This document shows positions 1,628 to 17,970 of a DNA stretch of 48,274 bases, in pieces. The position numbers and the translations under genes are program-made. Origin of the DNA: Candidatus Eiseniibacteriota bacterium (GTDB taxonomy: Bacteria > ARS69); assembly GCA_052390515.1 (NCBI GenBank), contig JBQTGV010000106.1, positions 1 to 48,274 on the forward strand. Direction: 5' to 3'. The notes beneath the pieces were generated by a model, which was given only the letters and a program-made list of their open reading frames with translations, searched no databases and had not been told where the DNA came from. Positions within the stretch are counted from its first letter, which is position 1. Each line of letters starts with the position of its first letter.

Positions 1628-3690
1628 GACTCGCCGGCCTCGTTCCACAGCGCCAGAGCGCGGGACTCGCCGGCCGCGTACCGCTGGTCGCGCTCATCGC
1701 GGCGGCGCTGCTCGCCTTCGCCCCGACGAACGCGTCGGCCAAGAAGTTGATCGTGCTCGGCTTCGATGGGCTCGATCCGGACATCGTGCGGCAGCTCGTG
1801 GACGAGGGCCGCCTGCCCAACATGGCCCGTTTGGCGAAGGAGGGCGGCGGCCTGCACGATCTGGCCACGTCCATCCCACCGCAGAGTCCCGTGGCCTGGT
1901 CCAACTTCATCACCGGACTGGACAGCGGCGGGCACGGCATCTTCGACTTCCTGCACCGGGATGCGAAGACCTACATCCCGTACCTCTCCACCAGCAAGCC
2001 GATCGAGAGCGAGGAGGAGCCGTTCAAGCTCGGCGAGTACTGCATCCCCCGCGGCGCCGGCGGCTTCGAGCTCCTTCGCCACGGGACCGCCTTCTGGGAG
2101 ACGCTGGAGCAGAACGGCGTGCCCTGCATGATCGTGCGCATGCCGGCGAACTTCCCGGTTTCGGGCAAGGCGACGTACGAGCTATCCGGAATGGGGACGC
2201 CGGACGTTCGCGGCACCTACGGGACGTTCTCCTTCTATACGACCGATCACGCCGAGTTCGCCGGCAAGAACATCGGCGGCGGCAACGTCTACAACGTGAC
2301 GCTCGCCGGCGGACAGGCCACTTGCAAGCTGGAAGGGCCGATGAACCCGCTCCTCTGCAACGAGAAGAAGCGCGCGTTCGTCGAGTTCACCGTGGACGTC
2401 GATCCGGACGAGGACTGGGTGCTGCTCTCGCTCGAGGGCGAAGAGCACCTGCTCGGCGCGGGGGAGTGGACGGAGTGGCTGCCGATCGAGCTCCCCTTCG
2501 CGCCGAACGCGGCGCTCTCGCTCGTGGCACCGCCGGTCAAGGTGATGGCGCGGTTCTACGTGAAGCAAGTGCATCCGCACCTGAAGATCTACGTCTCGCC
2601 GATGAACTACGATCCCATGTACGCGACCGACGACTTCGCCAACCCGCCGTCCTTCGCCAGGGAGTTGGCCGAGGCCGCTGGGCGCTTCGCCACGCAGGGC
2701 ATGCCCGAAGACACCAAGGCGCTCGACGAGCACGTCTTCACCGTGGACGAGTTCCTGAAGCAGGCGGGGAACGCGGGGCAGGAGATCCTCGACGAGTTCC
2801 CCTGGGTGCTCGACAAGTTCCAGCGGGAGTTCCCCGACAAGGGCTGCCTCTTCTACTACACGGGAAACCACGACCAGATCGGACACATGCTCTACCGCAC
2901 GATGGATCCGAGCCATCCCACCTTCGATCCGGCCGTCCACGCGCAGTTCGGAGAGGTGATGCCGGGGATCATCGAGCGGCTGGATCAGCTCGTCGGCTAC
3001 GCCCTGGAGCGCATCGACGACGACACGACGCTGATCCTCATGTCCGACCACGGCTTCGCCAGCTGGCGCCGCGCGATGAACGTCAACTCGTGGCTCGCGT
3101 CCGAGGGATACCTCACGCTCAAGAACCCGAACATCGAGAAGGACCCGGGCTTCTTCCTCAACGTGGACTGGACGAAGACCCGGGCCTACGCGCTGGGTCT
3201 GAACGGCCTCTACGTGAACGTGCGCGGGCGTGAGGCGAAGGGCATCGTCCCGGAGTCGGAGCGGCGGGGACTCCTGGAGGAGATCGCCTACAAGCTGGTC
3301 CAGACGAAGGACCCCGAGACCGGACTGCAGGCCGTCTCCAAGGTGTACCTGTGCGAGGACAGTTTCCACGACCGCGGGCACCTGGACGTCGGGCCGGACA
3401 TCATCGTCGGCTTCGCCAAGGAGATGCGCTCGTCGAACCAGTCCGCGACGGGGACGATCCCGCCGGAGGTGTTCAAGAACTGCGACACGGAGTGGAGCGC
3501 GGATCACTGCATGGATCACACGGTCGTGGCCGGCGTGCTGATGTCCAATCGGCCGCTGGCGAAGCCGGCGCCCGCGCTGCAGAATCTCGCCGCGGCCATC
3601 CTCGCCGAGTTCGGCATCGGCGAGTTCCCCGGCGACGCCGAGAAGGATCTGAAGGCCGTCGGCTACATCGCCGCGACCGCGACGCACTAG
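1624..3690 (+). CDS. Secreted AlkP-superfamily phosphodiesterase/sulfatase-like enzyme with C-terminal KDLKAVGYI tail
   Basis: Signal peptide (..LLAFAPTNASA), VLGFDG, PPQSPVAWSNFITG (Ser nucleophile region), HGIFDF, MSDHGF, WSADHC. GTGA overlap with the upstream stop codon. Confidence 0.88.
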   Translation: MRLAGLVPQRQSAGLAGRVPLVALIAAALLAFAPTNASAKKLIVLGFDGLDPDIVRQLVDEGRLPNMARLAKEGGGLHDLATSIPPQSPVAWSNFITGLDSGGHGIFDFLHRDAKTYIPYLSTSKPIESEEEPFKLGEYCIPRGAGGFELLRHGTAFWETLEQNGVPCMIVRMPANFPVSGKATYELSGMGTPDVRGTYGTFSFYTTDHAEFAGKNIGGGNVYNVTLAGGQATCKLEGPMNPLLCNEKKRAFVEFTVDVDPDEDWVLLSLEGEEHLLGAGEWTEWLPIELPFAPNAALSLVAPPVKVMARFYVKQVHPHLKIYVSPMNYDPMYATDDFANPPSFARELAEAAGRFATQGMPEDTKALDEHVFTVDEFLKQAGNAGQEILDEFPWVLDKFQREFPDKGCLFYYTGNHDQIGHMLYRTMDPSHPTFDPAVHAQFGEVMPGIIERLDQLVGYALERIDDDTTLILMSDHGFASWRRAMNVNSWLASEGYLTLKNPNIEKDPGFFLNVDWTKTRAYALGLNGLYVNVRGREAKGIVPESERRGLLEEIAYKLVQTKDPETGLQAVSKVYLCEDSFHDRGHLDVGPDIIVGFAKEMRSSNQSATGTIPPEVFKNCDTEWSADHCMDHTVVAGVLMSNRPLAKPAPALQNLAAAILAEFGIGEFPGDAEKDLKAVGYIAATATH

Positions 3691-4929: not shown

Positions 4930-5065
4930 CCGGACCAAGGCGAACACCCATTTCGGACCAACGTGAACACCCGTTTCGGTCAAGGTGAACGCTGATTTCG
5001 GGATGGCGAACAGCCGTTTCGGTCAAGGCGAACACCGGTTCCGGACGCGGGGAACGGCTCTTCCC
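4930..5065 (+). repeat. About six ~22-bp tandem subterminal repeats (GAAC-N5-TT(T/C)CGG) at the IS21 left end
   Basis: gaacacccatttcgg / gaacacccgtttcgg / gaacgctgatttcgg / gaacagccgtttcgg / gaacaccggttccgg / gaacggctcttcc. Inverted copies at ~7590-7645. Typical IS21 transposase-binding repeats. Confidence 0.85.
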
Positions 5066-5162
5066 AAGGAGTCGAAGGGCGTGGTGCATCCTCCTCCACC
5101 GGGGACGGACGGCCCGCCCAGTATGGCGCTGAGCGCGGGACCGCCCGCCCCGGGGAGGAGGC

Positions 5163-6703
5163 ATGGGGGCGGCGAGGCTTGCGATGCGGAAGAGTCGAGA
5201 CATTCTACGGCTGAAGTGGGCGCTCGGGGTGAGCCACCGGCAGGTGGCGCGGAGCCTGGCCGTGGGGCTTGGGACGGTGGCGGAGACGCTGGAGCGGGCC
5301 GCGGCGGCCGGGCTCACGAGCTGGGCGCAGGTGGAAGGGCTGGACGAGCCGGCGCTCGAGGAGCGGCTGTATGGCGTTCGCCTCGAGGTGCCTTCGCGGC
5401 CGCTGCCGGACGCGCGCTATCTCCACCAGGAGCTCCACAAGAAGGGCGTGACGCTTCAGCTCCTGCATCTCGAGTACCTGGAGAAGCCCCCGACGGCTAC
5501 CGCTACACGCAGTTCTGCGAGCACTACCGGCGCTGGGTCAAGCGGCAGCGTCGCTCGATGCGCCAGATCCACGGCGCCGGCGAGAGGATGTTCGCGGACT
5601 ACTCGGGGCTCAAGCCCCAGTACGTGGATCGGTCCACCGGCGAGCTGATCGAGGCGGAGCTCTTCGTCGCGGTGCTCGGTGCCTCGAACTACACCTACGC
5701 GGAAGCGACACGGAGTCAGCAGAGCGAGGACTGGATCGCGAGCCACGTTCGCGCCTTCGAGTACTTCGGCGGAGCGCCGAGGGCGACCGTCCCGGACCAG
5801 CTCAAGAGCGGGGTCACGAAATCCTGCCGCTACGAGCCGGGCGTGCAGCGCACCTACGAGGAGATGGCGACGCACTACGGGACGATCATTCTTCCTGCTC
5901 GGCCTTCGAGCCCCAAGGACAAGGCGAAGGTGGAAGTCGCCGTGCAGATCGCGGAGCGCTGGATCCTCGCGAGGCTGAGGAACCGGACCTTCTTCTCGCT
6001 CGCAGAGCTGAACGCGGCCATCGCCGAGCTGCTCAAGGAGCTGAACACGAAGAAGATGCGCGTGTACGGGAAGAGTCGGCGCGAGCTCTTCCTCCTGCTG
6101 GATAAGCCGCAGCTCAGGCCGCTTCCGCCTGAGCGCTTCGAGTACACGACGTGGAAGAAGGCGCGGGTGAACATCGACTACCACGTCGAGCTCGAGTGGC
6201 ACTACTACTCGGTGCCGCATGCGCTGGTGCACGAGGAAGTCGAGATCCGTGCGTCGAAGTCGGTGGTGGAGATCCTCCACCGCGGAAAGCGCGTCGCCTC
6301 CCATGTCCGGAGCTACGTGCGCGGCGGGCACGCCACGGATCCTTCGCACATGCCGAGGGCGCACCGGGCACACCTCGAGTGGTCGCCGTCCCGGCTGATC
6401 CGTTGGGGGGAGAAGATCGGGAAGTCCACCGGACAGCTCGTGCAGGCGATCCTCGACGATCGGCCGCACCCCGAGCAGGGCTACCGGTCATGTCTTGGAA
6501 TCCTGCGCCTAGCGAAGCGCTACGGGGACGAACGCCTGGAGGCCGCGTGCGCGCGAGCGCTCCTCGTGCGCGCGCGTTCGTACCGCCATGTGGAATCGAT
6601 CCTGAAGAACGGCCTCGATCGCATGGTGCCCGTGAGCACCCCCGCGCGAGCGCCGAGCATGCTCGTCCACGAGAACATCCGCGGCCCGGAGTACTACCAC
6701 TGA
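5163..6703 (+). pseudogene. istA: IS21 DDE transposase IstA, frameshifted at ~5487-5491
   Basis: N-terminus MGAARLAMRKSRDILRL..LHLEYLEK in one frame. DGYRYTQFC, FADYSG, VPDQLKSGV and PKDKAKVE in the -1 frame. One base is missing in a C5 run. Confidence 0.9.
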
Positions 6704-6808
6704 GAGAAGGGAGGAAGAACGACCTCCTGGGAAGCCCCAGGACGCGAGATCTCACCAGGGGGAGGCATCCTGCTATCCCCCCTTTTCCCCGCACCAGAGG
6801 AGGAACGG

Positions 6809-7549
6809 ATGCTGACCGAACCCACCGTCGAGAAACTCAGGACGCTGCATCTCGACGCGATGGCGCAGGGTTACCTCGAGCAGACGCAGAAGCCCGACAT
6901 CGCCGAGCTTCCCTTCAACGACCGCTTCGGGCTCCTGGTGGACGCCGAGTACCTCGCGCGTGAGAACAAGCGTCTCTCCAGGAGGCTGCGCGAGGCGAAG
7001 CTCCGCCTGACGCAGGCCTGCGTCGAGGACGTCGACTACGCGCCGAAGCGTGAGCTCGACAAGGCGACTTTCCGCCAGCTCGCCACCTGCCGCTGGGTCC
7101 AGGAGCACCTCAACGTGCTCATCACCGGCTCCGCGGGAACCGGCAAGAGCTACCTCGCCTGCGCGCTCGCCAACCGGGCGTGCCGCCAGGGCTACCGGGC
7201 GCTATACTGCCGCGCCTCGCGTCTGTTCGACGAGCTGCTGCTCGCCCGGGCCACGGGCACCCACCTGCGCCTGCTCGCCAAGCTTGCGCGCATGGACGTG
7301 CTCGTGATCGACGACTGGGGCCTCAAACCCTTCACCGACCAGGAGCGCCTCGATCTCCTGGAGATCCTGGAGGACCGGTACGGCTCGCGCTCCACCATCA
7401 TCACGAGCCAGCTTGCGCCGAACAAGTGGCACGAAAGGCTGGGCGAGCCCACAATCGCGGATGCCATCCTCGATCGGCTCCTTCACGGAGCCTACAAGAT
7501 CGCCCTCAAGGGTCCTTCGAAAAGAAAGGAGGAGGTCGCCGAGCCCTGA
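6809..7549 (+). CDS. istB: IS21 helper AAA+ ATPase IstB
   Basis: Walker A GSAGTGKS, Walker B LVIDDWG, IITSQ, ADAILDRL. GAGGAGG RBS. Confidence 0.97.
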   Translation: MLTEPTVEKLRTLHLDAMAQGYLEQTQKPDIAELPFNDRFGLLVDAEYLARENKRLSRRLREAKLRLTQACVEDVDYAPKRELDKATFRQLATCRWVQEHLNVLITGSAGTGKSYLACALANRACRQGYRALYCRASRLFDELLLARATGTHLRLLAKLARMDVLVIDDWGLKPFTDQERLDLLEILEDRYGSRSTIITSQLAPNKWHERLGEPTIADAILDRLLHGAYKIALKGPSKRKEEVAEP

Positions 7550-7968
7550 GACCACCGCGTCGCTTCGCTCCGACAGGAGCCTGACGCCGCGTTCCCGATC
7601 CGGAAGCGTTCACGATGGCCGGAACGGGTGTTCAGAATGGCCGGAATACGCAGAATCTCCGTGAGAAGCGCATCGGGCCATTTAGACACGCCGATGCGGA
7701 AGTTCAAGGACCCCGATGATCAGTACCTTGGGCGCTGGGACTTGCTGGGTCCCGGATAAACCTGCCCGACCAGCGAATTACAGGGGCCGAGCATCGGGCT
7801 GCTTGGAAGCACGCTCTCCTTGCTATTCGGTATCGGCCTCGGGCTCGCGACGCACAGTCTCCGCCGAACCATTGGATGAGATCTTCGGGAGCGGAGCAGC
7901 CGGAATAGGTGGGCGAACCGGTGGCGGAACTGGTAAGGGGAGCCCCGGCTGGGGCCGGAGGACTCTAG

Positions 7969-8955
7969 GTGCGAGACGTGCTGGAAGCGAGTATCGAAGC
8001 CGCACTTCGGGTGAGTATCAACGTTACACACAAGCGGCTCAGACGTCGTCTCGGGCATGTACGAAAGTGCCGAGCGATTCGCATCGGGGGGTTTGAGCGA
8101 CGCCTTGTGCATCGATGGGGCCGAACACTTGATCTCTACGCGCTCGCGTACGAATACACTGTCGGTCTGGGAGAACGCTTCTCCAAGGAGAGTCTGCCAG
8201 GCGCAACGGATCCAGTGCGTGTCGCCACGCTCGCCCGATTGCACGCTCGGGCTTGCTTGGTTTCAGTGGAAGTGCACAGTCTGCTGCGTTGTGGGTTTGC
8301 GAGTGCCGCGTTGGCACGATGGAGAACGCTGCACGAGACGGCCGTCGTTGCTCGAGTTCTGCGGGATCGGCCGAGCGATCTGGCTCAACGCTACCTGGAC
8401 TACGAAGTCGTAGAGAGCTTCAAGGCGGCGGTAGAGTTTCAGGAGTACGAGCACTTCCTGGCAGAGGACCCGTTGCCCCCAGAAGACGTGGAGGAGATTC
8501 GAGCGGATCGGGAGCGAATCCTCGTGCGCTACGGGAAGGAGTTTGACAAGCCTTATGGATGGGCCGCGGAACTGCTTCCCGGAAAGACGACCCTGAAGGA
8601 ACTGGAGGAAGTCGCGGGGCTGCAAGGGTGGAGGCCCTACTACCGCATGGCCAGCGATGGTGTCCACGCTGGCCCGAAGGCTATCGCCTGGAACCTGGGG
8701 CTGGAAATGGACGCCGCCGGGCTTCTCGCTGGACCGAGCAACGTGGGTTTGGCGGATCCAGCGTACAACGCGATCTGGTCGCTGAGAGATGTGACTGCGT
8801 CGCTCCTCTCGCAGAGGCAAGACTTCGACGGCCTAGTCCAACTCGGCGTCTTGGAGCGGCTCCTCGAGGAGATCGGCGAAGCGGCCATGCGTGCCCATCG
8901 GGCGCTGGAGAGGCGGGCCCGCCTGGCGCGGCGTCCCCTCAGAGAGAGGGCATGA
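7969..8955 (+). CDS. DUF5677-like (HEPN-related) protein
   Basis: LLRCGFASAALARWRTLHE, YGWA and YYRMASDGVH (Rx6H). All-helical. Start uncertain. Confidence 0.7.
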   Translation: MRDVLEASIEAALRVSINVTHKRLRRRLGHVRKCRAIRIGGFERRLVHRWGRTLDLYALAYEYTVGLGERFSKESLPGATDPVRVATLARLHARACLVSVEVHSLLRCGFASAALARWRTLHETAVVARVLRDRPSDLAQRYLDYEVVESFKAAVEFQEYEHFLAEDPLPPEDVEEIRADRERILVRYGKEFDKPYGWAAELLPGKTTLKELEEVAGLQGWRPYYRMASDGVHAGPKAIAWNLGLEMDAAGLLAGPSNVGLADPAYNAIWSLRDVTASLLSQRQDFDGLVQLGVLERLLEEIGEAAMRAHRALERRARLARRPLRERA

Positions 8956-8956
8956 G

Positions 8957-9781
8957 ATGGCGAAAGGGTCCCGCGATCTCGTGACAATCATGAAGAGTGA
9001 AGGCCCCGTTGCGTTCCTGAGCGCAGTACTTCAAGACTTCGACGCGGTCGGCACTGGACTTCTTTCACGCGTAGCGGATTCCGGCAAGCTGGCGCCATTC
9101 TTGATTGGCGGGCGCCTGATTCAAGCGGCACGTTCCGGCCAGTTTTTCGAACAGCTTGCTCGCGAGGCGGAGGATCTGAGGAGGGTGGGGAGGATAGAAG
9201 ACGAGTACATGGGCGTCGGATCAAGCCAAGGCTTGCTTCCAGGAGTTGTGGGCTGCGCTGGAAGATCCACCTGTTGACGAGGTGAAGTTCGAAGCCCTGA
9301 AGGCTGTCTTTCTGACGGCATGCACTGAGGACATCTCCAACCGCGACGACATCGAACCGAGGCTCCTCATGACCGTGGTCCGTGGCCTTTCCACGGGCGA
9401 GCTCCTTTTGCTGGTGCAGGTCTTCAAAGAAATCGGCCGCACCGTATCCGCGGCCGGGCACCTCAGTACCGAAGCATGGATGACTGAGATCGCACCGGGA
9501 CCGGATTCAAGACCTCCGAGATGGCACGGATCTACTGCGAGAAGCTGTGGGAGAAGCGCCTTGTTGCCGGAAAGAGGCGGCCGTCCGATGGGAGTCTGGA
9601 CATCGGCAAGGGGCCGACGGTCACGCCACTTGGGCAACGGCTCTGTGCCTTCCTCCAGCACTGCGATGCGAATCTTAAGCCCCCCGCCGTGACCGGGAAA
9701 CTCGGATGCCCGAGCACGACGACCTGTTCGACGGGCTCCACGCCATGGTGGAGGGGGCGTTCGGGCGGCGCTCGGGGTTGA
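8957..9781 (+). pseudogene. Abi-alpha/DUF4393-like protein split by two frameshifts (~9212, ~9496)
   Basis: Three overlapping ORFs join into MAKGSRDL..IEDEYM/SDQAKACFQEL..KFEALKAVF..LLMTVVRGLSTGELLLL..WMTEIA/TGFKTSEM..LWEKRLV..VTPLGQRLCAFL. The end resembles a winged-helix C-terminus. Confidence 0.55.
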
Positions 9782-10166
9782 TGTGCTTCCTCGCTTGACC
9801 GGGGGACCGAGCTCGACCGGAATGACCCGACCTGCCCCGATCTGCCCCGGAAACCTTACCGGCGATGTACCGGCGGGTGACGGAGCGTCGGTGAAGAGGC
9901 GGTCCCGGAAGCTGTTGTGGGAGCAGAAGATCCGCTGGCGGCTGTCGTCCACCGGGCCCTTGCAGGCCCCACAAAACTGTACCGAAACCGCGAAATCGGC
10001 TCCGGCGGGTCAAATCTGGTCAGTTCGGGTCAGGGGGGCGACTGCGTAGATTGCGGAATCTACGACGTGGGAAGGGTCCCGCGTGTTGCGCGGCAGGGGC
10101 CGACTCAATAGGCTCGTGGCCGAGTGTCAACGGACGGTTCCGGTTGCCTACGTCACGCGGAGGGGC

Positions 10167-11810
10167 ATGTTGGCGGGGAAGAAGACGACGACGCCCGCGG
10201 AGCCGAACATCCTGTACTACGGCGACAACCTCGACGTTCTCCGGCGTCACGTGCCGGACGGGTCGGTGGATCTCGTCTACCTGGACCCGCCGTTCAACAG
10301 CAACCAGAACTACAACGTCCTCTTTGCGGAGAAGAACGGCACAGCTTCAAGCGCCCAGATCCACGCCTTCGAGGACACGTGGCACTGGGATAAGGTCGCG
10401 GCCGCCGCCTACCAAGAAGTCGTCGAAGGCAGTGGCCGGCCATCGGAGGCGATGCAGGCATTTCGCACGCTGCTCGGCGATAACGACATGATGGCCTACC
10501 TGGCCAACATGGGCATCCGCCTCCTTGAACTCCGCCGCGTGCTGAAGCCGACGGGCTCTATCTATCACACTGCGACCCGACGGCGTCTCACTACCTGAAA
10601 GTCCTCATGGATGCGATCTTCGCCGCCCGGAACTTCCGAAACGAGCTCGTCTGGCAGCGCTTCGGTTCTCACAATGACCCGAAGCGGTGGGGACGTGTAA
10701 CCGACTCGATTCTGTTCTACACGAAGTCGAAGGACTACAAGTTCAATCCGGTGCGCGGATCGTACAGCGAAGAGCACATCACGAAACGTTTTCGCTACAA
10801 GGATCCCGACGGCCGTCTGTTCTGGCCCAACACCTGTCTCGCCCCCGGCGGACGTGGACCGCGCTACGAGTGGAATGGTCATACGCGAAACTGGCGATTC
10901 ACCAAGGAGAACATGCAGAAGCTGCATGACGCGATTCAGTTGTACTACAGCAAGGAGGGTATGCCGTACCGGAAGAACTACCTCGACGAACTACCGGGCC
11001 GACTCATTCAGAGCCTTTGGACGGACATCAAGATGACGAAGAGCGGAGCGGAGAAGCTCGGCTCCCACGCAGAAGCCGGAGGCGCTCCTTGAGCGCATCA
11101 TTCTCGCGAGTAGTAATGAGGGAGATACCGTCCTTGATCCGTTCTGCGGGTGTGGGACAACGATCGCCGTCGCACACCGGGTCAAGCGCCGTTGGATCGG
11201 CATCGACGTCACGCACCTCGCGGTAACACTCATGAAGCATCGTCTCCGAGATGCGTTCGGTGAGGAAGTATCCTACGAGGTAATTGGCGAACCTACTGAT
11301 CTTGCCGGCGCCCGAGCACTTGCCCAGGATGATCCCTATCAATTCCAGTGGTGGACCCTTGGCCTCGTTGGCGCTCGGCCCGCAGAGCAGAAGAAGGGTG
11401 CTGACAGGGGGATCGACGGTCGGCTGTACTTCCACGACGAGCTCGGTGGCGCCACTAAGCAGATCATCTTCTCTGTCAAGGCTGGCATGACCGGACCCTC
11501 ACACGTACGTGACCTCCGCGGCGTCGTCGAACGAGAGGAGGCAGCGATGGGCGTCCTGATCACCATGCAGGCACCCACACAACCGATGCGCAAGGAAGCG
11601 GCTAGCGCAGGGTTCTACGATTCGAAGTGGGGCAGTCGACACCCCACGCTGCAGCTTATCACGGTTGAGGAACTGCTCGACGGTAAGCGACTTGATATGC
11701 CTCCGATCGGACAGGTCAACAGGACGTTCAAACGGGCGAAGAGGACCAAGGAGAAGCCGCCCGAGAAGCTCGCGCTGCCTCTCAAGAGCCCAGAGGGTGA
11801 GGTCTTTTAG
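10167..11810 (+). pseudogene. Beta-class N6/N4 DNA methyltransferase fused to a C-terminal Mrr-like PD-(D/E)XK domain, with two frameshifts (~10568, ~11063)
   Basis: [58 protein letters not shown]-terminus [26 protein letters not shown]. Confidence 0.88.
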
Positions 11811-11963
11811 CCGGCAGGGCTCGAAGTGAGCGTGTCGGTGATGAACGGCCACATTCCGCAGGTGAGACCGAACTAGCCACGCACTGGAGGGAGGGGCACG
11901 TCGAGTCTTGGCGAAGCGCTCACTAGCGGCAAATCTCCCACCTCGCAGCCGGACGGTCGCCTC

Positions 11964-14900
11964 GTGACTGCCGATTCTCCAGGTTCCCGACACTTGATCA
12001 TCACCGTACACGGCATCCGCACGTTCGGTGAGTGGCAGGAACGCTTCGAGTCGCTGCTGCGTTCATCGAGTGTCGTGCCAGACGTGATTCACTACAAGTA
12101 CGGTTTTGTGTCAGTGCTGGCCATTGTGGTCCCCTTGTTCCGTTGGTTAGCCGTTCGTCGATTCCGCCGCTCGCTAGTGTCTCTGCTGCGATCTCGCGAA
12201 TGGGACCGAGTAGACGTTGTCGCGCACAGCTACGGCACCTTCATCGTTGCATGGACGCTGCACGAACTGAGAAGGGACAAGTCGCTGCCAGCGATTCACA
12301 CGTTCATTTGCGCCGGGAGCGTACTGCGCTCCACCTTTCCTTGGGACGCAATTCTGAGCACGCGATTGTACCGTCTCGTGAACGAGTGCGGCCTGCGGGA
12401 CGCGGTTCTTCTGGCAAGCCAGTTCTTCATTCCGTTTCTCGGGATGGCCGGTCGAATCGGATTCACTGGGATAACTGGGGATCGCATTCGCAATCGGTTC
12501 TTTCGATTTGGTCACGGTGGCTACTTCTCGTCACACGATGGTGGCGACCGAGACCAATTCATGCGACAGCACTGGCTTCCGCTTCTTCAGAGTGATGCCG
12601 CGATTCCTGTCATTGACGAGCGTGCCGGTACGCTGATCGAGGGCTACGCCACCCTTCTCGCCAGGAATGCTGACCCGATCAAACTGGTGGCCTTCGCAGG
12701 GATACCGGTTCTCGCGTGTCTATACGTCACCCACCTGTACCTGGAGTCTGAACGCTTGCGGCGCGTCGATGTCGCGGAGCGTCTGGCGAGTGCTGCGTTT
12801 AGCATGCAGATTCAACCCCCTCATGACCGCTTCGACTTCGCCAGTTCCAGAATGCACTCGCTTCATCTCGCCGTGCTTTCCGAGCGTCTGTCGCCGAACC
12901 CGATCGCCAGTTCTGTTCTCTGGACGGCGATTCAGGGACAGCCTGAGATTCGCCACCGGCTTGTACATGACGGTCCTGTACGCGGTGTCGCATTGAACGG
13001 AGCGGGGACTCTACTCGCAACGTCTTCGGCAGCGGGCACCCTGCGGATCTGGGATCTCTCTCGCGGGGAGATGCTTTCAAACTTCGGCGTGGGCCACGCA
13101 ACCTCCAACATCGCACTCAACAGAAGTGGTTCCGCGGTTCTGGAGGTCGACGAATCAGGCGTCCTCCAGATCTGGGACGTCTCCACACGAGAGCTGCAGG
13201 CTAAGTTTGCCTACGATAGCAAGGATGGCTTCGTGGCACTAAGCGCAAACGGCCGGCATGCCGCGTTTTCCGGACGCGACCTTGTGCTGCTCGATGTCGG
13301 TGAGGGGAGGATAATTCGGGCCGTGGAACGCTGCTGGTTCAGCTCTGGTGAGTTTACCTCCGACGGTCGCACTTTCGTCGCAAGACGTCGAGCCGCGCAT
13401 TCCGTGCATGTCTTCACCGGTTCACAATTCGAGAGAGATCGAGAGGTCCAGCTTCCCGAGTATAGGCGGCTGTGGGTCTCTCCGCAGGGCGGCTACGTCG
13501 CAAGTTATCTAAGCACTAAGGGAGGCCCGACCGAGCTCTCGGTGACAGAACTGACCTCGGGCGAGGCGACTCAGACCCTGTTGCCGCCGACGCACGCCTC
13601 GCCAGGGCCCGTGGTGGCGTGGTCGAACGATGAAACGACGCTTGCCGCGGCGGCTGGGACGGTTCTTCGGATCCTCGACTTGCGCACAGGTCGCGCCCAG
13701 GAGGCGGAGGTCGAGTCCAGGATCCGCGCTATTGACTTCCTGGACGAGACAGCAAGTCTAGTCACGGCAGATTCCGATGGCACTGTGATGGTACGACAGT
13801 TGAGCGACCTTCGAGAGAGTGCACGCATATACCTTGACGCACAGGTGGCAGAGCTTCAAGCCTTGGAGGGGCCGCCTCGTATACTTGTTTCGAACTCTCA
13901 GTTCTCGGCACATCTCGTCACTATCTGGGATCTCGAACTCCGCGGACGTACAACCCTCCGTTGTGGCCTGGGATTCCGGACTATGCGGCTATCACCGGAC
14001 GGGTCACTTGTCGTGGCGGCGGCCGGCGACACTCTCGTTGGCATGGACAGGGACGGACGCCAGCTGTGGACGGCACCAGAGAGCGGTGTCAAGTGGATCA
14101 CCTTCTCCCGATGTGGCACATGGTTTCTGGCTTGTACTGAGGATGGACAGACCCGGGTACGAGACGCGCGCTCGGGTCGCACTCTGTCGTCGCTGGTTGC
14201 CCAGCGCGAAGTCTGCGCGTGCTTGGCACTCGATGCAACCTCGTATGCATTGGGATTGAGCGACGGGGTCATTGAGATTCGCGACGCGGTGACGGGCTCT
14301 CTCTTGGCGACGGCACGGGACGACACGGTCGTGGAAATCCGCGATATTGATGAGGGGGAGGCGGTCGTGTCATCGACGACCGTGGTGTCCGCGGTTCGCC
14401 ATCTCGCGGTGTCAGCAAACGGCAGTCGGCTGGCTTCTGGACACGATACTGGTACGGTGATCGTGTGGGACCTTCCAAATCTCCGGGAGCTACGTCGCGT
14501 CTATCCCGTCGTTGGGAGCGATCTCGTCTCACTCGCCCTCAACCCGACCGGCTCCGTAGTCGCGGCAGGGGTGAGCGGAACGGTTAGTCTATTCCACGTT
14601 CCCACCGGCATCCAGTATGGACGGATCAGGTCCGGAGATGTGGACATGGTCTGTCATCCGAGTAGGTGGCGCATCGCAGTCGGAATGGGGAAGGACAACA
14701 CACTTAATGCGGGGATCTACTCGTTGATTACAGGCAGGCTACTTGTAGACCTCAGGGACGGAGGAGGCGGCCCACATAAGCTCTGCTTCGATCCTCAAGG
14801 TCGGTACATTGTTGGCGTTCAGAGCGCCCACCCTGCAACGCTCCAGCTGCGTTCGGCCGAGAGCGGCAGGGTGCTTGCTGCTTACGAGTTCCCTTCAGAG

Positions 14901-15098
14901 ATCGAGGATGTCGAAATGAGCCGCTCGGGACGAACGCTCGCTGTAGTGGCGTCGTCGGGCGATGTGTTTGTCCAGATCTGGAGTCCGGAGGATCTGATCG
15001 AAGGGGCCTGCAAGCGTTTGCCAAGGAACCTTACTCTCAGGGAGTGGAAGTCTCTCGTTGGTGATGAGGACTACGAGAGAACGTTCGAAGAGCGATAG
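11964..15098 (+). CDS. Alpha/beta-hydrolase - TM - WD40 beta-propeller fusion protein
   Basis: ITVHGIRTFG oxyanion loop, VVAHSYGT nucleophile elbow, candidate Asp (CGLRD) and His (FGHGGYF). TM at ~aa 240-260. Many WD-like repeats (LRIWD, LQIWD, VTIWD, VIVWD). C-terminus ACKRLPRNLTLREW. Confidence 0.85.
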   Translation: MTADSPGSRHLIITVHGIRTFGEWQERFESLLRSSSVVPDVIHYKYGFVSVLAIVVPLFRWLAVRRFRRSLVSLLRSREWDRVDVVAHSYGTFIVAWTLHELRRDKSLPAIHTFICAGSVLRSTFPWDAILSTRLYRLVNECGLRDAVLLASQFFIPFLGMAGRIGFTGITGDRIRNRFFRFGHGGYFSSHDGGDRDQFMRQHWLPLLQSDAAIPVIDERAGTLIEGYATLLARNADPIKLVAFAGIPVLACLYVTHLYLESERLRRVDVAERLASAAFSMQIQPPHDRFDFASSRMHSLHLAVLSERLSPNPIASSVLWTAIQGQPEIRHRLVHDGPVRGVALNGAGTLLATSSAAGTLRIWDLSRGEMLSNFGVGHATSNIALNRSGSAVLEVDESGVLQIWDVSTRELQAKFAYDSKDGFVALSANGRHAAFSGRDLVLLDVGEGRIIRAVERCWFSSGEFTSDGRTFVARRRAAHSVHVFTGSQFERDREVQLPEYRRLWVSPQGGYVASYLSTKGGPTELSVTELTSGEATQTLLPPTHASPGPVVAWSNDETTLAAAAGTVLRILDLRTGRAQEAEVESRIRAIDFLDETASLVTADSDGTVMVRQLSDLRESARIYLDAQVAELQALEGPPRILVSNSQFSAHLVTIWDLELRGRTTLRCGLGFRTMRLSPDGSLVVAAAGDTLVGMDRDGRQLWTAPESGVKWITFSRCGTWFLACTEDGQTRVRDARSGRTLSSLVAQREVCACLALDATSYALGLSDGVIEIRDAVTGSLLATARDDTVVEIRDIDEGEAVVSSTTVVSAVRHLAVSANGSRLASGHDTGTVIVWDLPNLRELRRVYPVVGSDLVSLALNPTGSVVAAGVSGTVSLFHVPTGIQYGRIRSGDVDMVCHPSRWRIAVGMGKDNTLNAGIYSLITGRLLVDLRDGGGGPHKLCFDPQGRYIVGVQSAHPATLQLRSAESGRVLAAYEFPSEIEDVEMSRSGRTLAVVASSGDVFVQIWSPEDLIEGACKRLPRNLTLREWKSLVGDEDYERTFEER

Positions 15099-15252: not shown

Positions 15253-17970
15253 CTACCGCTGCACGAGCCGCAGCACGCCCGCCGGCTCGAACACCTCCCG
15301 CGCCAGCGTCTGCACCTCCTCGTACCGGACCGCGCGCAGCGAGTCAGTCGTGCCGGTGTGCCGCCGGAAGCCGGCACCGTTCCCCTCCGCCACCGCCAGA
15401 CTCCACGCCTGCATCGCGTTGTTCTGCGCGTCCAGGACGTGGCCGTTCACGAGGCGCTGGACCGCGTCGGCGAACTCCTTCTTGGTGAACCCGCGCGTCG
15501 AGTAACGCGTCAGATCCTCCTCGAACATCGCCAAAATCTCGTCGAAGCGGTCCCGCTTGACGTCGTTCTCGACGATCCAGGCCCCCGGACCGAGGTGGTC
15601 CCAGAAGCGGATCCAACTCCGGTACGAGACGCCTTCGCCGTAGACGTACTTGTAGAAGTGGTCGTTCCCGGCGATGCGGGAGAGCACAACGGACGGGAGC
15701 CAGGCATCGCCCCCGTACGGCGCTCCCGGCCGCCCCCAGTTCACCGTCCAGTAATCCTTGCCGAGATCGAGAGACTCGCTCAGCACCGGCGCGCTCCATC
15801 CCGCGGTGGCGCCCTCGACGTCCACGCGCCACGGCTCGGCGACGACATCCGGAAGATCCGCCCAGTGCGCCGCCACCCACTCGGCCACGGCGGCCGGCTC
15901 TACGCCCCCGACCACCGACACCACCGTCCGGTCCGGCTTCCAGTTCGTCGCATGGAACGCGGCCAGCTCCTTCGCCCCGAACGCCGCCACCGACTGCTCC
16001 GTCCCGATTGTCGGGCGGCCGTAGGGATGCCCCGCGTACGCCCGCACGTAGAACTCCTGCTTGATGTACTCGAGGTTGTTCTCCGGCAGCGAGCGGATCT
16101 CGGTCAGTTGATCCTCGCGGAGCTTTTCGATCTCCTTCGCGGCGAACGACGGGAAGAAGAGCGTCTCCTTGAGACAGGCGAGCATCGCCGGCCACTGCTC
16201 CTCCAGACCGACGTAGTGGTGCGCCGCGGCGTCCCGGTAGTCGACGTTCCGTGAAGTGTTCGCCCGGCTGTTCGACGGCGCGTGTGCGCCGGCCTGAATC
16301 GAACGGGAGCCGAGCAGCCGCGTGAAGCCCTCGCGGTCCCAGCGCCGCGTGCCCCGCATGCCGAGCTCGGAAACGAAGCGGTTGATTCCCGGGCGGCCGT
16401 CCGGCTCGACCCACTGGCCGCCCAGCACCCGACCACTGACCGCCAGCAGCTCCGACGCGTCGGTCGGCTGCACCAGCAGGCGAAGACCGTTCGCGAAGGT
16501 GAAGAGGTGCGCGCCGTCGGCCGCCGCGGTCTCCATCCAGGCCAGCGGCGGGCGGCCGGCCGCCGGGAGAAGCGCTCCGGCCACCTCCAGGTCGGGAGCC
16601 GCCGCCGCTCGCGGCGCCTTCGGCTGGACGCTCCGCTTCTCGGCAGACGCAAGGTCGAAACCCTCGGGATGCAGCGTGGCCGTCACCAGCCGGTCCGCCA
16701 CGAGCCACGCCTCCTTCGCCGCCTGCACGTCGGCGGCGCCGAGCGCGCTGTATCGTTCCAAGAGCTGCTCCGCGCCTTCACGGCCGCGGCGGCTGACGAG
16801 GAACCCGAAGCGGTGCGCGCGATCCGCCACCGTCTCCCGATCCCTGGCCTCGGAGAAGAGCACGCGCCGCCGCGCCTCCTCGAAGACCGCGGGTGGGAGC
16901 TTATTGACGTCGAGGTCCTCGAGGAACTGCCGGACGAAGCTCGTGACCGGCTCGGCCTTCGCCGGATCCACGCGCGCGCTCACCGTGAACACGCCGTGAT
17001 CCCGCATGGCGTAGTGGTCGGCGCCGACCGACACGACCCACTTCTCCTGTTCCACGAGGTACTGCGGCAGCCCGTGCGAGCGGTCGTTCAGCAGCGCGGC
17101 GAGCAGGTCGAGCGCCGGCGCGTCGGGATGCGAGCCTCCCGGGACGACGAATCCCAGGAGCACGCGGCTGTCGCTGGCCTGCGCCGTCCGGTCCACGCGC
17201 GAGCGCGGGCCGGTCTGGACCGCCTCGGCGAGGCCCAGCTCGAACGACTCCGGACCTGGCTCCTCCTGCCCCCACACCGAGCGCACCAGCCGCGTCATCT
17301 CTTCCGTCTCGAAATCCCCGGCGATGGAGAGGATCATGTGGTTCGGCGTGAAGCGCTCTCGGTAGTACCTCTCGGTGCGCTTCATCTCGAGGTCCCGGAT
17401 GGCCTTCTCCGTGCCGATCACGGAGCGCCCGTAGGGGTGCACCTGGAACGCCAGGCGGTCCCAGTTCGTCCAGATCATGTCGTCCGGATCCTCCAGACCC
17501 TGGGTCAGCTCCTGGATGACGACTTCCTTCTCCGCCTCGAACCACTCCTCCTCGTACTCCAGATCGAGCAGCGCCTCGCGAAGCGCCTCGAGTCCCTCGG
17601 CGAAGTTCTCCTTCGGCGCCTCGAACCCGAAGTTGATCTCGTCGTCCCAGGTCCAGCCGCCGGACTCCTGGCCGAGCAGGGCGATTCTCTTCCGGAACTC
17701 CGTCGGCGCGAAGTTCGGCGTGCCGCCCTTGTAGACGAGGTGCTCGATGTAATGCAGCGATCCCTGGAAGTACTCGTCCTCGGTACGCCCGCCAGTCGTG
17801 ACGTACGCGGAAGCGGCGATGACCGGATGCGCGCTCGTCGGGGCGAGCAGCACGGTGAGCCCGTTGTCCAGCGTCACGGTGGCGAAGGGCGGAGCGCCGG
17901 CGCGGGCACCGGCGGCCGCGAGGAGCGGAAGAACGGCAGCGAACGAGACGGCGACGAGGCGAGACGGCAT
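15253..17970 (-). CDS. Secreted M16 (pitrilysin/insulinase) zinc peptidase, four-domain fused form
   Basis: Signal peptide, TLDNGLTV, inverted zinc motif HYIEH, EKEVVIQE, HPYGR twice. The second half lacks HxxEH. Confidence 0.92.
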   Translation of the reverse strand: MPSRLVAVSFAAVLPLLAAAGARAGAPPFATVTLDNGLTVLLAPTSAHPVIAASAYVTTGGRTEDEYFQGSLHYIEHLVYKGGTPNFAPTEFRKRIALLGQESGGWTWDDEINFGFEAPKENFAEGLEALREALLDLEYEEEWFEAEKEVVIQELTQGLEDPDDMIWTNWDRLAFQVHPYGRSVIGTEKAIRDLEMKRTERYYRERFTPNHMILSIAGDFETEEMTRLVRSVWGQEEPGPESFELGLAEAVQTGPRSRVDRTAQASDSRVLLGFVVPGGSHPDAPALDLLAALLNDRSHGLPQYLVEQEKWVVSVGADHYAMRDHGVFTVSARVDPAKAEPVTSFVRQFLEDLDVNKLPPAVFEEARRRVLFSEARDRETVADRAHRFGFLVSRRGREGAEQLLERYSALGAADVQAAKEAWLVADRLVTATLHPEGFDLASAEKRSVQPKAPRAAAAPDLEVAGALLPAAGRPPLAWMETAAADGAHLFTFANGLRLLVQPTDASELLAVSGRVLGGQWVEPDGRPGINRFVSELGMRGTRRWDREGFTRLLGSRSIQAGAHAPSNSRANTSRNVDYRDAAAHHYVGLEEQWPAMLACLKETLFFPSFAAKEIEKLREDQLTEIRSLPENNLEYIKQEFYVRAYAGHPYGRPTIGTEQSVAAFGAKELAAFHATNWKPDRTVVSVVGGVEPAAVAEWVAAHWADLPDVVAEPWRVDVEGATAGWSAPVLSESLDLGKDYWTVNWGRPGAPYGGDAWLPSVVLSRIAGNDHFYKYVYGEGVSYRSWIRFWDHLGPGAWIVENDVKRDRFDEILAMFEEDLTRYSTRGFTKKEFADAVQRLVNGHVLDAQNNAMQAWSLAVAEGNGAGFRRHTGTTDSLRAVRYEEVQTLAREVFEPAGVLRLVQR

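Follow-up and report, generated by a model that had tools for sequence, protein, structure and literature searches.

A bacterial protein family, with the look of a one-chain sensor and effector, in which a predicted alpha/beta-hydrolase is joined to WD40 or TPR arrays without an NTPase

One gene in the window (the whole 48,274-nucleotide stretch of DNA that was analyzed) encodes a 1044-amino-acid protein in which a hydrolase, one hydrophobic helix, a helical linker, a WD40 array, and a C-terminal cap follow one another. The protein belongs to a large bacterial family without prior study that, judged by sequence, looks like a one-protein sensor-and-killer device, and we predict it to be a new NTPase-less variant of the repeat-sensor/effector conflict proteins. 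Avs, bNACHT, and nSTAND repeat-sensor immune proteins couple sensing to killing via a STAND NTPase. If our reading is true, the family wires the same sensor module directly to a lipase-like effector, such that the NTPase would be dispensable for a design of this kind, and it would provide a simple one-gene system for how WD40/TPR arrays switch an enzyme. We give about even chances to the window protein being a single-chain sensor-effector of the bacterial conflict (defence) type, built without an NTPase.

Table 1. Features of the gene, its product, and the adjacent DNA (positions in the window; residues in the 1044-amino-acid protein).
Feature	Position	Strand	Basis or remark
Complete gene	11964..15098	+	GTG start, 1044 codons plus TAG stop
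Minimal alpha/beta-hydrolase (lipase/esterase-like), residues ~8–235	11985..12668	+	AF2, Foldseek, sub-cut-off Pfam, conservation
HG16-17 oxyanion motif	12009–12014	+	codons checked
S89, putative nucleophile	12228–12230	+	codon checked
D146, putative acid	12399–12401	+	codon checked
H184, putative triad histidine	12513–12515	+	codon checked
Hydrophobic helix, residues 241–260, candidate single membrane span/anchor	12684..12743	+	KD windows
Charged helix and helical hairpin linker, residues 261–334	12744..12965	+	AF2 helices 292–309, 313–323
WD40 array, residues ~335–1007, 14 blades (two seven-bladed propellers expected)	12966..14984	+	Pfam, AF2, Foldseek
C-terminal two-helix cap with 'AC....RNLT..EW', residues 1008–1044	14985..15095	+	AF2 helices 1008–1018, 1025–1031
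Low-GC island upstream of gene, context rather than partner	7650..11963		GC 0.58–0.63 vs 0.65–0.75 elsewhere
DUF5677 ORF, 328 aa, looks whole	7969–8955		Pfam
Methyltransferase split into two ORFs	10083–10598 and 10607–11092		Pfam, PADLOC
Mrr/NA-iREase1-like ORF	11232–11810		matches C-terminal part of its PADLOC model only
IS21-family element bordering island	4936..7646	+	Pfam, terminal inverted repeats
IstA	4985–6703		Pfam
IstB	6809–7549		Pfam

An earlier note, made from the letters of the window alone, had described a large intact gene with this domain order and no NTPase. The reading frame indeed has no internal stop, and the order was borne out by Pfam, AF2 models, and a Walker A pattern scan. 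The alignments of relatives begin at residue 1–10, which points to the long GTG start. The gene call stored in the collection (P0006, 845 amino acids) begins instead at M200, so that the first 199 residues, and with them the catalytic residues, are missing and the enzyme is hidden. Neither NCBIfam nor PADLOC has a model that matched the protein, and a promoter and terminator scan gave no signal above that of shuffled sequences.

Fold, elbow, triad order, and oxyanion motif, as seen in the AF2 model (pLDDT 85), place the N-terminal domain in the alpha/beta-hydrolase superfamily. S89 sits within 'AHSYG' immediately after strand 82–88, D146 follows strand 135–143, H184 follows strand 175–180, and the HG motif follows strand 10–16. 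The complete Ser-Asp-His triad proposed earlier is thus found at canonical post-strand positions, and it is kept almost without exception: S89 and H184 in all 207 long relatives, D146 in 206 of the 207, and each of the three in 17 of 17 short relatives. (Conservation of H16 and G17 is built in, because the aligned relatives were selected by the pattern HG[IV][RQ][TS].) Foldseek matched the model to alpha/beta hydrolases with probabilities of 0.99–1.0 (3ds8 at E 2e-4), among them Bacillus lipase A and palmitoyl-protein thioesterases, with thioesterases and esterases as near in fold as lipases. At the level of sequence, Abhydrolase_6 (PF12697) scored 23.9 bits (E 7.8e-5), below its gathering cut-off of 26.3, and searching the PDB by sequence with the first 329 residues returned no significant match. 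A second hydrophobic stretch (~41–65) belongs to the hydrolase fold itself, where it forms a conserved helix pair.

The protein leaves no room for an NTPase domain. The note had reported no Walker A/B anywhere, and a pattern scan of all 1044 residues found no Walker A; a cryptic NTPase was looked for in residues 1–329, where a family search gave nothing at E<=10. Only ~70 residues, predicted to be helical, separate the helix from blade one. Across the family the Walker A pattern occurred in 2 of 213 proteins, both times implausibly placed.

The long WD40 region was confirmed by a PF00400 score of 69.7 bits (cut-off 27), by an AF2 model (pLDDT 75) whose 56 strands make up the 14 blades, with low-confidence inserts at 491–546, 620–662, and 755–778, and by Foldseek, in which tandem propellers were the best matches (2ymu, Pwp2, Apaf-1). 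No blade-length DNA tandem repeats were found in the gene; we take the blades to be old and divergent, without recent repeat shuffling. The terminal motif named by the note is present as ACKRLPRNLTLREW at residues 1015–1028. Searching for 'C..[RK][ND]L[TS]..EW' after the last blade recovered this cap at the C terminus of 16 of 211 relatives and of 10 of 72 WD40 sensor hits, most of the latter nSTAND1-type. Both cysteines of the usual cap pair are present in 22 of these 26 motif-bearing proteins, neither in 3, and one in 1; the window protein lacks the second.

Because a single-sequence search with residues 236–335 found only the window's own protein, the linker was examined by profiles. A profile from 170 relatives matched 25 of the 72 sensor-region hits; in 22 of these the match comes immediately behind a strong TM. 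At least 46 of the 72 list PF20703, the nSTAND1 family. Several kinase proteins (PF00069, without PF20703 among the domains listed) were among the best sensor-region matches, and none of the 25 linker matches was a kinase-only hit. The reverse profile, drawn from those 25 linker-positive matches, most of them nSTAND1-type, matched 58 of 212 relatives as against 0 of 212 shuffled sequences. The window linker itself (267–336) aligned in register but weakly (3.8 bits, E 0.004 in a one-sequence search). The nSTAND1-type linker that the note had assigned to the window protein therefore stands at the level of the family, where the profiles identify the helix–linker–WD40–cap module as the one found behind nSTAND1 NTPases, whereas the protein's own copy appears to be weak and divergent.

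The N-terminal module is widespread. The window copy shares 40–53% identity over residues ~8–280 with hundreds of proteins (E down to 6e-81), and the hydrolase-plus-helix module hit 2873 representatives at E<=1e-3, a number that falls to 1573 at <=1e-10 and to 454 at <=1e-30. It heads at least 454 protein clusters at E<1e-30, in many phyla, so the combination of hydrolase, TM, and WD40 without an NTPase, for which the note had suggested an architecture search, is not a one-off. Among the matches listed, it starts within the first 85 residues in 148 of 149 non-self cases. The family is marked by HGIRT, HSFGT, NDCGxxD, GMAGRxGF, and NRxxxxGH (invariant columns), behind which come a hydrophobic helix and then a long stretch of repeats; the window protein has the features of this unnamed hydrolase–TM–repeat family, as does Blr1564 of Bradyrhizobium. 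Behind the module, precomputed domain lists for 78 non-self matches gave a beta-propeller in 39, TPR in 12, COR in 1, and no listed family in 26, and from these sequences we regard the module as a mobile unit with interchangeable WD40, TPR, and other repeat arrays. This member of the family, blr1564, comes from the well-studied symbiont Bradyrhizobium diazoefficiens; the term 'blr1564' was not found in the literature searched, and a literature search for NTPase-less NLR-like proteins returned only unrelated NLRP3 work.

Short relatives place the same hydrolase in a candidate defence operon. They were taken at one point for ~250-amino-acid stand-alone proteins, a view that we rejected when their frames proved to extend upstream to 388–425 amino acids, with a receiver-like domain ahead of the hydrolase and a membrane anchor at the C terminus. 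They occupy the third-gene position of the three-gene PDC-M60, one of 145 PADLOC candidate systems listed in a preprint (10.1101/2024.01.29.577857); in the literature searched, the name PDC-M60 came up in a single survey paper. ORFs of ~1100 and ~150 amino acids lie upstream on the same strand in 16 of 18 loci, and PADLOC assigned PDC-M60A in 7 of 7 tested and PDC-M60B in 8 of 8 tested. In 8 of 8, the match of the third gene to PDC-M60C was confined to model positions 1 to ~150 of 407; after this part come the hydrolase and then the anchor, and the PADLOC model beyond position ~150 has no match to the hydrolase. PDC-M60A had no PDB relative by sequence search, and Walker A was absent from 14 of 14 copies. 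The PDC-M60 models matched neither the window protein nor the 9 window ORFs scanned. The use of the hydrolase as the output part of a variant PDC-M60 third gene suggests that the module acts as an effector on the cytoplasmic side of the membrane. Twelve plasmid records, of which 9 were typed as conjugative, carry the module, and on an IncF plasmid the cassette adjoins integrase and toxin-antitoxin genes; the hydrolase-anchor module marks an effector-swapped variant of the candidate PDC-M60 cassette on conjugative plasmids.

These observations suggest how the protein might work. The hydrolase would be kept inactive on the cytoplasmic side of the inner membrane; once the repeat array had bound a foreign or damage-associated ligand, the packing or oligomeric state of helix 238–282 would change; and the lipase/esterase, freed onto membrane lipids, would damage the membrane and stop the infected cell. 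The note's appeal to hydrolase effectors on fungal and bacterial NLR-like proteins agrees with published accounts: bacterial conflict systems with alpha/beta-hydrolase effectors have been described (PMC8195603, PMC7159879), and sesB-like lipases serve as effectors of fungal NLRs (Dyrka et al. 2014, PMC4986451).

The surroundings of the gene bear on whether it serves defence at all. Its GC3 is 0.66, compared with ~0.9 in host genes, and it adjoins the low-GC island bordered by the IS21-family element (inverted repeats at 4952–4993 and 7605–7646, with 22–23-nt repeats at the left end). The claim that it is the only large intact gene in this island held insofar as the methylase is split and the REase-like ORF partial, but the DUF5677 ORF looks whole. 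No tRNA genes were found in the window. Treating the island as a definable insertion was abandoned: in G004 and G001, the only two relatives with both flanking genes on one contig, the flanking phosphodiesterase (1624–3690) and M16 peptidase (15253–17970) lie hundreds of kb apart, so no empty site can be defined.

A non-immune role, in which an inner-membrane-anchored esterase, thioesterase, or lipase would use its WD40/TPR array as a scaffold for recruitment to partners in the envelope, in lipid remodelling, or in signalling as part of accessory physiology, is possible, though we think it rather unlikely. The neighbours of long-form relatives, which are mostly ordinary genes (Mfd, SecA, TopA, transporters) with no conserved partner, speak for it, as does an M23 peptidase downstream in three related Rhizobiales loci. 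When 110 neighbour ORFs of 29 long-form loci were searched with PADLOC (excluding six long housekeeping ORFs), 5 loci had matches, and clearly defence-like immediate neighbours were limited to one of the 29 (L018, with PDC-S36, PD-T7-3, and PDC-M72A), the other four having generic kinase, methyltransferase, FAD, or TPR matches. A low copy number, 1–3 per genome in 5 genomes, also speaks against the conflict reading, as do the old and divergent blades, the absence of a PADLOC model, the marginal linker match, and the charges that flank the helix. Fold neighbours also include palmitoyl-protein thioesterases and housekeeping esterases, and the 90%-identity cluster of Blr1564 (942 amino acids) was seen on 193 contigs from several species of Bradyrhizobium, suggestive of stable retention. 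Against such a role, several members of that cluster are split into two genes, suggestive of decay, and the distribution is very patchy: the module is in 0 of 11 same-family genomes and, among 61 species genomes from the genus to which G042 belongs, in G042 alone, the other 60 lacking it. The plasmid locations and the low-GC island beside an IS element likewise argue, if indirectly, for the conflict reading, as do the swapping of the hydrolase-anchor module into a candidate defence operon and a sensor module that is that of nSTAND1 conflict proteins.

The geometry of the protein is a separate matter. The one TM of the note is retained as a candidate: residues 241–260 are an uncharged hydrophobic stretch (KD ~1.8) within one long predicted helix, 238–282 in the AF2 model, and 172 of 204 relatives have a comparable stretch at KD>=1.5, its hydrophobicity kept and its sequence not. 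A cytoplasmic hydrolase is supported by the sequences of the tail-anchored short relatives, which begin with a receiver-like domain and lack a signal peptide, and in 192 of 206 relatives HGIRT lies within the first 40 residues with no signal peptide. The extracytoplasmic propeller fared less well. K+R residues are more numerous on the C-terminal than on the N-terminal side of the helix in 151 of 172 relatives (15 have equal counts and 6 have fewer on the C-terminal side), the opposite of the prediction for a cytoplasmic N terminus and an extracytoplasmic C terminus, and the helix is only moderately hydrophobic (KD ~1.5–2.0, compared with 1.7–3.0 in the linker-positive sensor hits, mostly nSTAND1-type, whose N-terminal flank has ~5 K+R compared with ~1 here). 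In two relatives (P0192 and P0007) a signal-like or TM N terminus precedes the hydrolase, which would lie outside in those cases. A peripheral or monotopic helix, or a reversed orientation, with cytoplasmic propellers sensing cytoplasmic ligands like those of Avs/bNACHT and no transmembrane signalling, would account for these features, but we doubt it: a 20-residue uncharged helix with 780 residues after it is hardly monotopic, the homologous nSTAND1 linker–WD40–cap follows a stop-transfer helix of the classical N-in kind, the pairing of the cap cysteines fits a disulfide, which would indicate an oxidising compartment, and the host genome has Omp85-family genes and thus a periplasm. On balance we lean slightly towards propellers that face the periplasm rather than staying in the cytoplasm.

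Arrays facing the periplasm would make the family a rare case of envelope-side invader sensing. In the fullest form of this idea, which we consider improbable as a whole, the family would be the bacterial equivalent of transmembrane pattern-recognition receptors. Periplasmic WD40/TPR arrays would detect an envelope invader, through cues such as phage tail or ejection proteins or the effectors of an attacking neighbour, and one continuous helix would activate the cytoplasmic-face lipase with neither nucleotide switch nor partner; nSTAND1 proteins would then represent the same outward-facing sensor under the control of an NTPase.

That the gene is a non-functional nSTAND1-type remnant whose NTPase was lost by deletion is largely refuted and very improbable: the split and truncated genes of the degraded island alongside, the divergent linker, and the absent cap cysteine would fit decay, but the ORF is intact over 1044 codons, its N-terminal domain is a hydrolase abutting the helix and not a truncated NTPase, hundreds of clusters in many phyla share the NTPase-less architecture with catalytic residues kept, and the host appears to have no clear nSTAND1 gene, its best match being marginal and non-specific (28.8 bits against a cut-off of 27.1, in a search that also matches 13 of 14 control genomes).

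Compared with known systems, the predicted conflict protein combines familiar parts in an unfamiliar way. Known minimal alpha/beta hydrolases, namely Bacillus lipase A (1i6w), Lin2722 (3ds8), and the thioesterases 1pja and 3gro, have the same fold, 'xHSxG' elbow, Ser-Asp-His order, and HG motif but only 8–17% identity to the window hydrolase, and the conserved hydrophobic helix pair (50–77) and the 'GMAGRxGF' and 'NRxxxxGH' motifs are specific to its family; the Pfam families DUF900, DUF676, and Abhydrolase_6 are of the same fold class, yet none reaches its cut-off here. The third-gene C-terminal part that accompanies PDC-M60A and PDC-M60B is related to the hydrolase-plus-anchor module at 30–39% identity, whereas the window protein lacks both a receiver-like domain and M60A/M60B neighbours and carries its own repeat sensor. 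Bacterial Ser/Thr kinase–WD40 proteins also join an enzymatic output to a WD40 array without an NTPase, the output being a kinase rather than a hydrolase. Fungal NLRs with sesB-like lipase N termini, as described in PMC4986451, are alike by architecture, with alpha/beta-hydrolase and WD40/TPR/ANK sensors in one chain, but differ in that a NACHT or NB-ARC domain separates effector from repeats and a membrane helix is absent. The nSTAND1-type NTPase–TM–WD40 proteins (for example P0226 of Couchioplanes caeruleus, named 'nSTAND1 domain-containing NTPase' by NCBI) share with the family, in the same order, a membrane helix, a linker with the common motif '..LSR.LAA.A....LLLA.EA..', tandem WD40 propellers, and a 'C..RNLT..EW' cap. 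PF20703 requires a P-loop NTPase with Walker A, and the window protein has neither, nor an HTH: nothing separates its hydrolase from the helix, which is itself less hydrophobic and has no arginine cluster N-terminal to it, and the linker match is marginal.

The window gene is an open frame of 1044 codons with a GTG start (11964–15098, + strand), and we take the GTG at 11964 as the true start because relatives align from residue 1–10 onward; the stored gene call (P0006, 845 aa) starts at M200, lacks residues 1–199 (11964–12560) and, with them, all of the hydrolase's catalytic region. An AlphaFold model of residues 1–329 (31 sequences, pLDDT 85) contained a six-stranded alpha/beta-hydrolase core followed by a single long helix (238–282) and a helical hairpin. 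Foldseek matched this model exclusively to alpha/beta hydrolases, among them Lin2722 (3ds8, E 2e-4), Bacillus lipase A, palmitoyl-protein thioesterases and type II thioesterases, and Pfam placed Abhydrolase_6 slightly below its cut-off (23.9 versus 26.3 bits), with faint matches to DUF900, DUF676 and Tle3. In the model, HG16–17 follows strand 10–16 and is a putative oxyanion hole, and S89 (in 'AHSYG', after 82–88), D146 (after 135–143) and H184 (after 175–180) form a putative triad, each in its canonical place. Residues 241–260 are a hydrophobic stretch without charge, and WD40 repeats span residues 335–1007 (PF00400, 69.7 bits versus a cut-off of 27). A second model (residues 236–1044, 33-row alignment, pLDDT 75) had 56 strands, corresponding to 14 blades, broken by three low-confidence inserts and followed by two short C-terminal helices that bear 'ACKRLPRNLTLREW'; its Foldseek neighbours were the tandem propellers 2ymu, Pwp2 and Apaf-1. 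Within the third insert, at 14248–14328, the DNA contains short imperfect duplications (units of 21 and 10 nt) that match a repeated 'IEIRDA / VEIRDI' peptide.

The earlier note had described the triad residues, hydrophobic helix, WD40 array and terminal cap in a protein without Walker A, and all of these observations were confirmed. Its proposal that the architecture lacks an NTPase was also supported, and a cryptic NTPase was ruled out, because the Walker A pattern was absent from the protein, residues 1–329 matched no NTPase family in Pfam even at E ≤ 10, and the 70 residues from the helix to the first blade are predicted to be helical.

A full HMMER pass with residues 1–329 over 1.84 billion representatives recovered 2873 relatives at E ≤ 1e-3 (1573 at ≤ 1e-10 and 454 at ≤ 1e-30), and the module began inside the first 85 residues in 148 of 149 non-self matches, among the matches listed. 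Pfam families listed for 78 non-self matches of a word-indexed search were beta-propellers in 39, TPR in 12 and COR domains in 1, with no Pfam family in 26 and no NTPase family among those listed; a Walker A pattern occurred in 2 of 213 family proteins, each time at an implausible position. These sequence comparisons support the extension of the NTPase-less architecture to a large uncharacterised family. Across 224 aligned rows, every long (207/207) and every short (17/17) relative retained S89 and H184, and D146 was retained in 206/207 and 17/17, respectively; the rows had been picked by their HGIRT motif, so the conservation of H16 and G17 carries no weight. Behind the hydrolase domain, 172 of 204 relatives had a hydrophobic window (KD ≥ 1.5) whose sequence was not conserved. 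Hosts across 80 loci included Bradyrhizobium and other Rhizobiales, Planctomycetota, Acidobacteriota, Nitrospirota, Verrucomicrobiota, Myxococcota, and beta- and gammaproteobacteria. Bradyrhizobium Blr1564 is a family member; a search of the available papers did not find the term 'blr1564'. Three relatives (P0192, P0007 and P0080) were odd: one had a signal-like N-terminus and CarboxypepD_reg ahead of the hydrolase, one had an extra N-terminal TM, and a distant one had COR-A/COR-B ahead of a related hydrolase.

The short relatives, from gammaproteobacteria, betaproteobacteria and a few others, were 30–39% identical. Their apparent length of 240–340 aa was rejected, as the frames run upstream to 388–425 aa and encode a receiver-like domain, the hydrolase and then a terminal hydrophobic stretch. 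These tail-anchored forms, which lack a signal peptide and begin with a domain of cytoplasmic type, are predicted to put the hydrolase on the cytoplasmic face of the membrane. In 16 of 18 short-form loci, ORFs of ~1100 and ~150 aa lay upstream on the same strand, which PADLOC named PDC-M60A (7/7 loci tested) and PDC-M60B (8/8 loci tested), components of a three-gene defence candidate. The third gene matched PDC-M60C at model positions 1 to ~150 of 407 only (8/8 cases); thus it differs from the PADLOC model in the output part, where it carries the hydrolase-anchor unit. According to the source preprint (10.1101/2024.01.29.577857), PDC systems are 145 untested candidates from 'guilt by embedding'. 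These PDC-M60-like operons (loci L054–L076, e.g. L056:3753–8726) have a gene A (~1100 aa) with no Pfam family and no Walker A in 14/14 copies; the L056 copy had no PDB relative by sequence. Genes B and C each start with a receiver-like domain, and the system seems to consist of phosphorelay-like parts without an evident kinase.

Turning to the sensor, the best BLASTP matches of residues 263–1044 were long WD40 proteins at 22–27% identity. Among 72 such matches (local alignments, query coverage ≥ 40%), nSTAND1 (PF20703) was listed for at least 46, and a kinase or NACHT for others. A linker profile made from 170 members of the family and covering the 66 residues behind the helix matched 25 of the 72 at i-E ≤ 1e-3, in 22 cases directly behind a strongly hydrophobic helix; the reverse profile, built solely from those 25, matched 58 of 212 family members versus 0 of 212 shuffled copies. 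The C-terminus carried the cap motif in 16 of 211 members of the family and in 10 of the 72 sensor matches, and two nSTAND1 proteins (P0226, from Couchioplanes caeruleus, and P0252) ran in the order Walker A, arginine-rich stop-transfer, TM, linker, WD40, cap. Together, the reciprocal profiles, the cap and this order mean that the earlier note's view of linker and cap as typical of nSTAND1 proteins holds for the family; for the window protein itself the linker match was weak (3.8 bits), at the correct position. Of the 26 motif-bearing proteins (P0009, P0107 and P0215 are examples), 22 have both of the cysteines that flank 'RNLT..EW', 3 have neither and 1 has a single one, a pattern that suggests a disulfide or paired contact; the window protein retains the first only.

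The lipase had been proposed to be cytoplasmic and the propeller to face outward. Consistent with this, the short relatives are tail-anchored, signal peptides are lacking and HGIRT lies ≤ 40 residues from the start in 192 of 206 relatives, the cap cysteines mostly occur as a pair, and the homologous nSTAND1 module lies beyond a classical N-in helix (~5.2 K+R before, 2.2 after). The host, moreover, has a periplasm, because Omp85-family genes are present. Against it, 151 of 172 relatives have more K+R behind the helix than ahead of it (means 3.2 versus 1.4), the helix is only moderately hydrophobic, and two relatives have a signal-like or TM N-terminus. On balance, we lean slightly towards periplasmic propellers.

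In favour of a defence role, the window gene lies between an IS21 element and host genes and is adjoined by a DUF5677 ORF, a split methyltransferase and an Mrr/NA-iREase1-like ORF.

Features around the window gene
Feature	Position	Details
Paralogous type I phosphodiesterase/nucleotide pyrophosphatase genes	2–3690	two, adjacent
IS21-family element	4936–7646	IstA (Mu-transposase C-terminal + rve domains), IstB
IS21 terminal inverted repeats	4952–4993, 7605–7646	42-nt, imperfect
IS21 left end		five tandem 22–23-nt direct repeats; one weak extra copy 790 nt upstream
DUF5677 ORF	7969–8955	328 aa; near-full Pfam model match; start of low-GC island
Split DNA methyltransferase	10083–11092	two neighbouring ORFs, 171 + 161 aa
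192-aa ORF	11232–11810	same strand, directly upstream of window gene

The gene sits within a 7.5-kb stretch at G+C 0.58–0.63 (versus 0.65–0.75 in the remaining window) and has a third-position G+C of 0.66 (versus ~0.9 in surrounding genes), both of which make it look acquired. The assembly that contains the window as a complete contig spans 4.27 Mb, is 95% complete and has a single copy of the gene. The methyltransferase gene seems to be disrupted, since its two ORFs match the N-terminal and middle portions of type II/III models. The 192-aa ORF matches Mrr_cat and the NACHT-associated inactive REase (NA-iREase1) and, of the PADLOC model PDC-S02, the C-terminal part alone. A restriction-endonuclease-fold protein (NOV_C; DUF4365-TPR) likewise lies just upstream of a family member in loci L018 and L060, which may be coincidence or loose association. 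The phosphodiesterase pair stays adjacent in related genomes.

Also favouring defence, no family member turned up in 11 genomes from the same taxonomic family or in the genomes of 60 other species in the genus to which genome G042 belongs. Members lay on 12 plasmid records, of which 9 were typed as conjugative, and on no phage record; on an IncF plasmid, the PDC-M60-like cassette adjoins integrase and toxin-antitoxin genes. Against defence, the two genes either side of 29 long-form loci were heterogeneous and mostly ordinary, and PADLOC matched in 5 loci, with specific matches in L018 only (110 neighbour ORFs scanned, six long housekeeping ORFs left out). Family copy number was 1–3 in 5 genomes, and the repeat array bore no sign of recent shuffling. 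We infer that the window protein could act as a transmembrane receptor with a defence role.

In the literature, nSTAND1 is defined and alpha/beta-hydrolases are listed among conflict effectors (Kaur et al., 2021; PMC8195603), alpha/beta-hydrolase effectors appear in NTP-dependent systems (Kaur et al., 2020; PMC7159879), TM segments occur on nSTAND1 targets (Doré et al., 2024; PMC10907252) and fungal NLRs carry sesB-like lipase domains (Dyrka et al., 2014; PMC4986451). The available portions of the literature yielded no description of a hydrolase-TM-WD40/TPR family without an NTPase; supplementary tables may list such architectures. We give an even chance to the window protein being an NTPase-less variant of repeat-sensor/effector conflict proteins.
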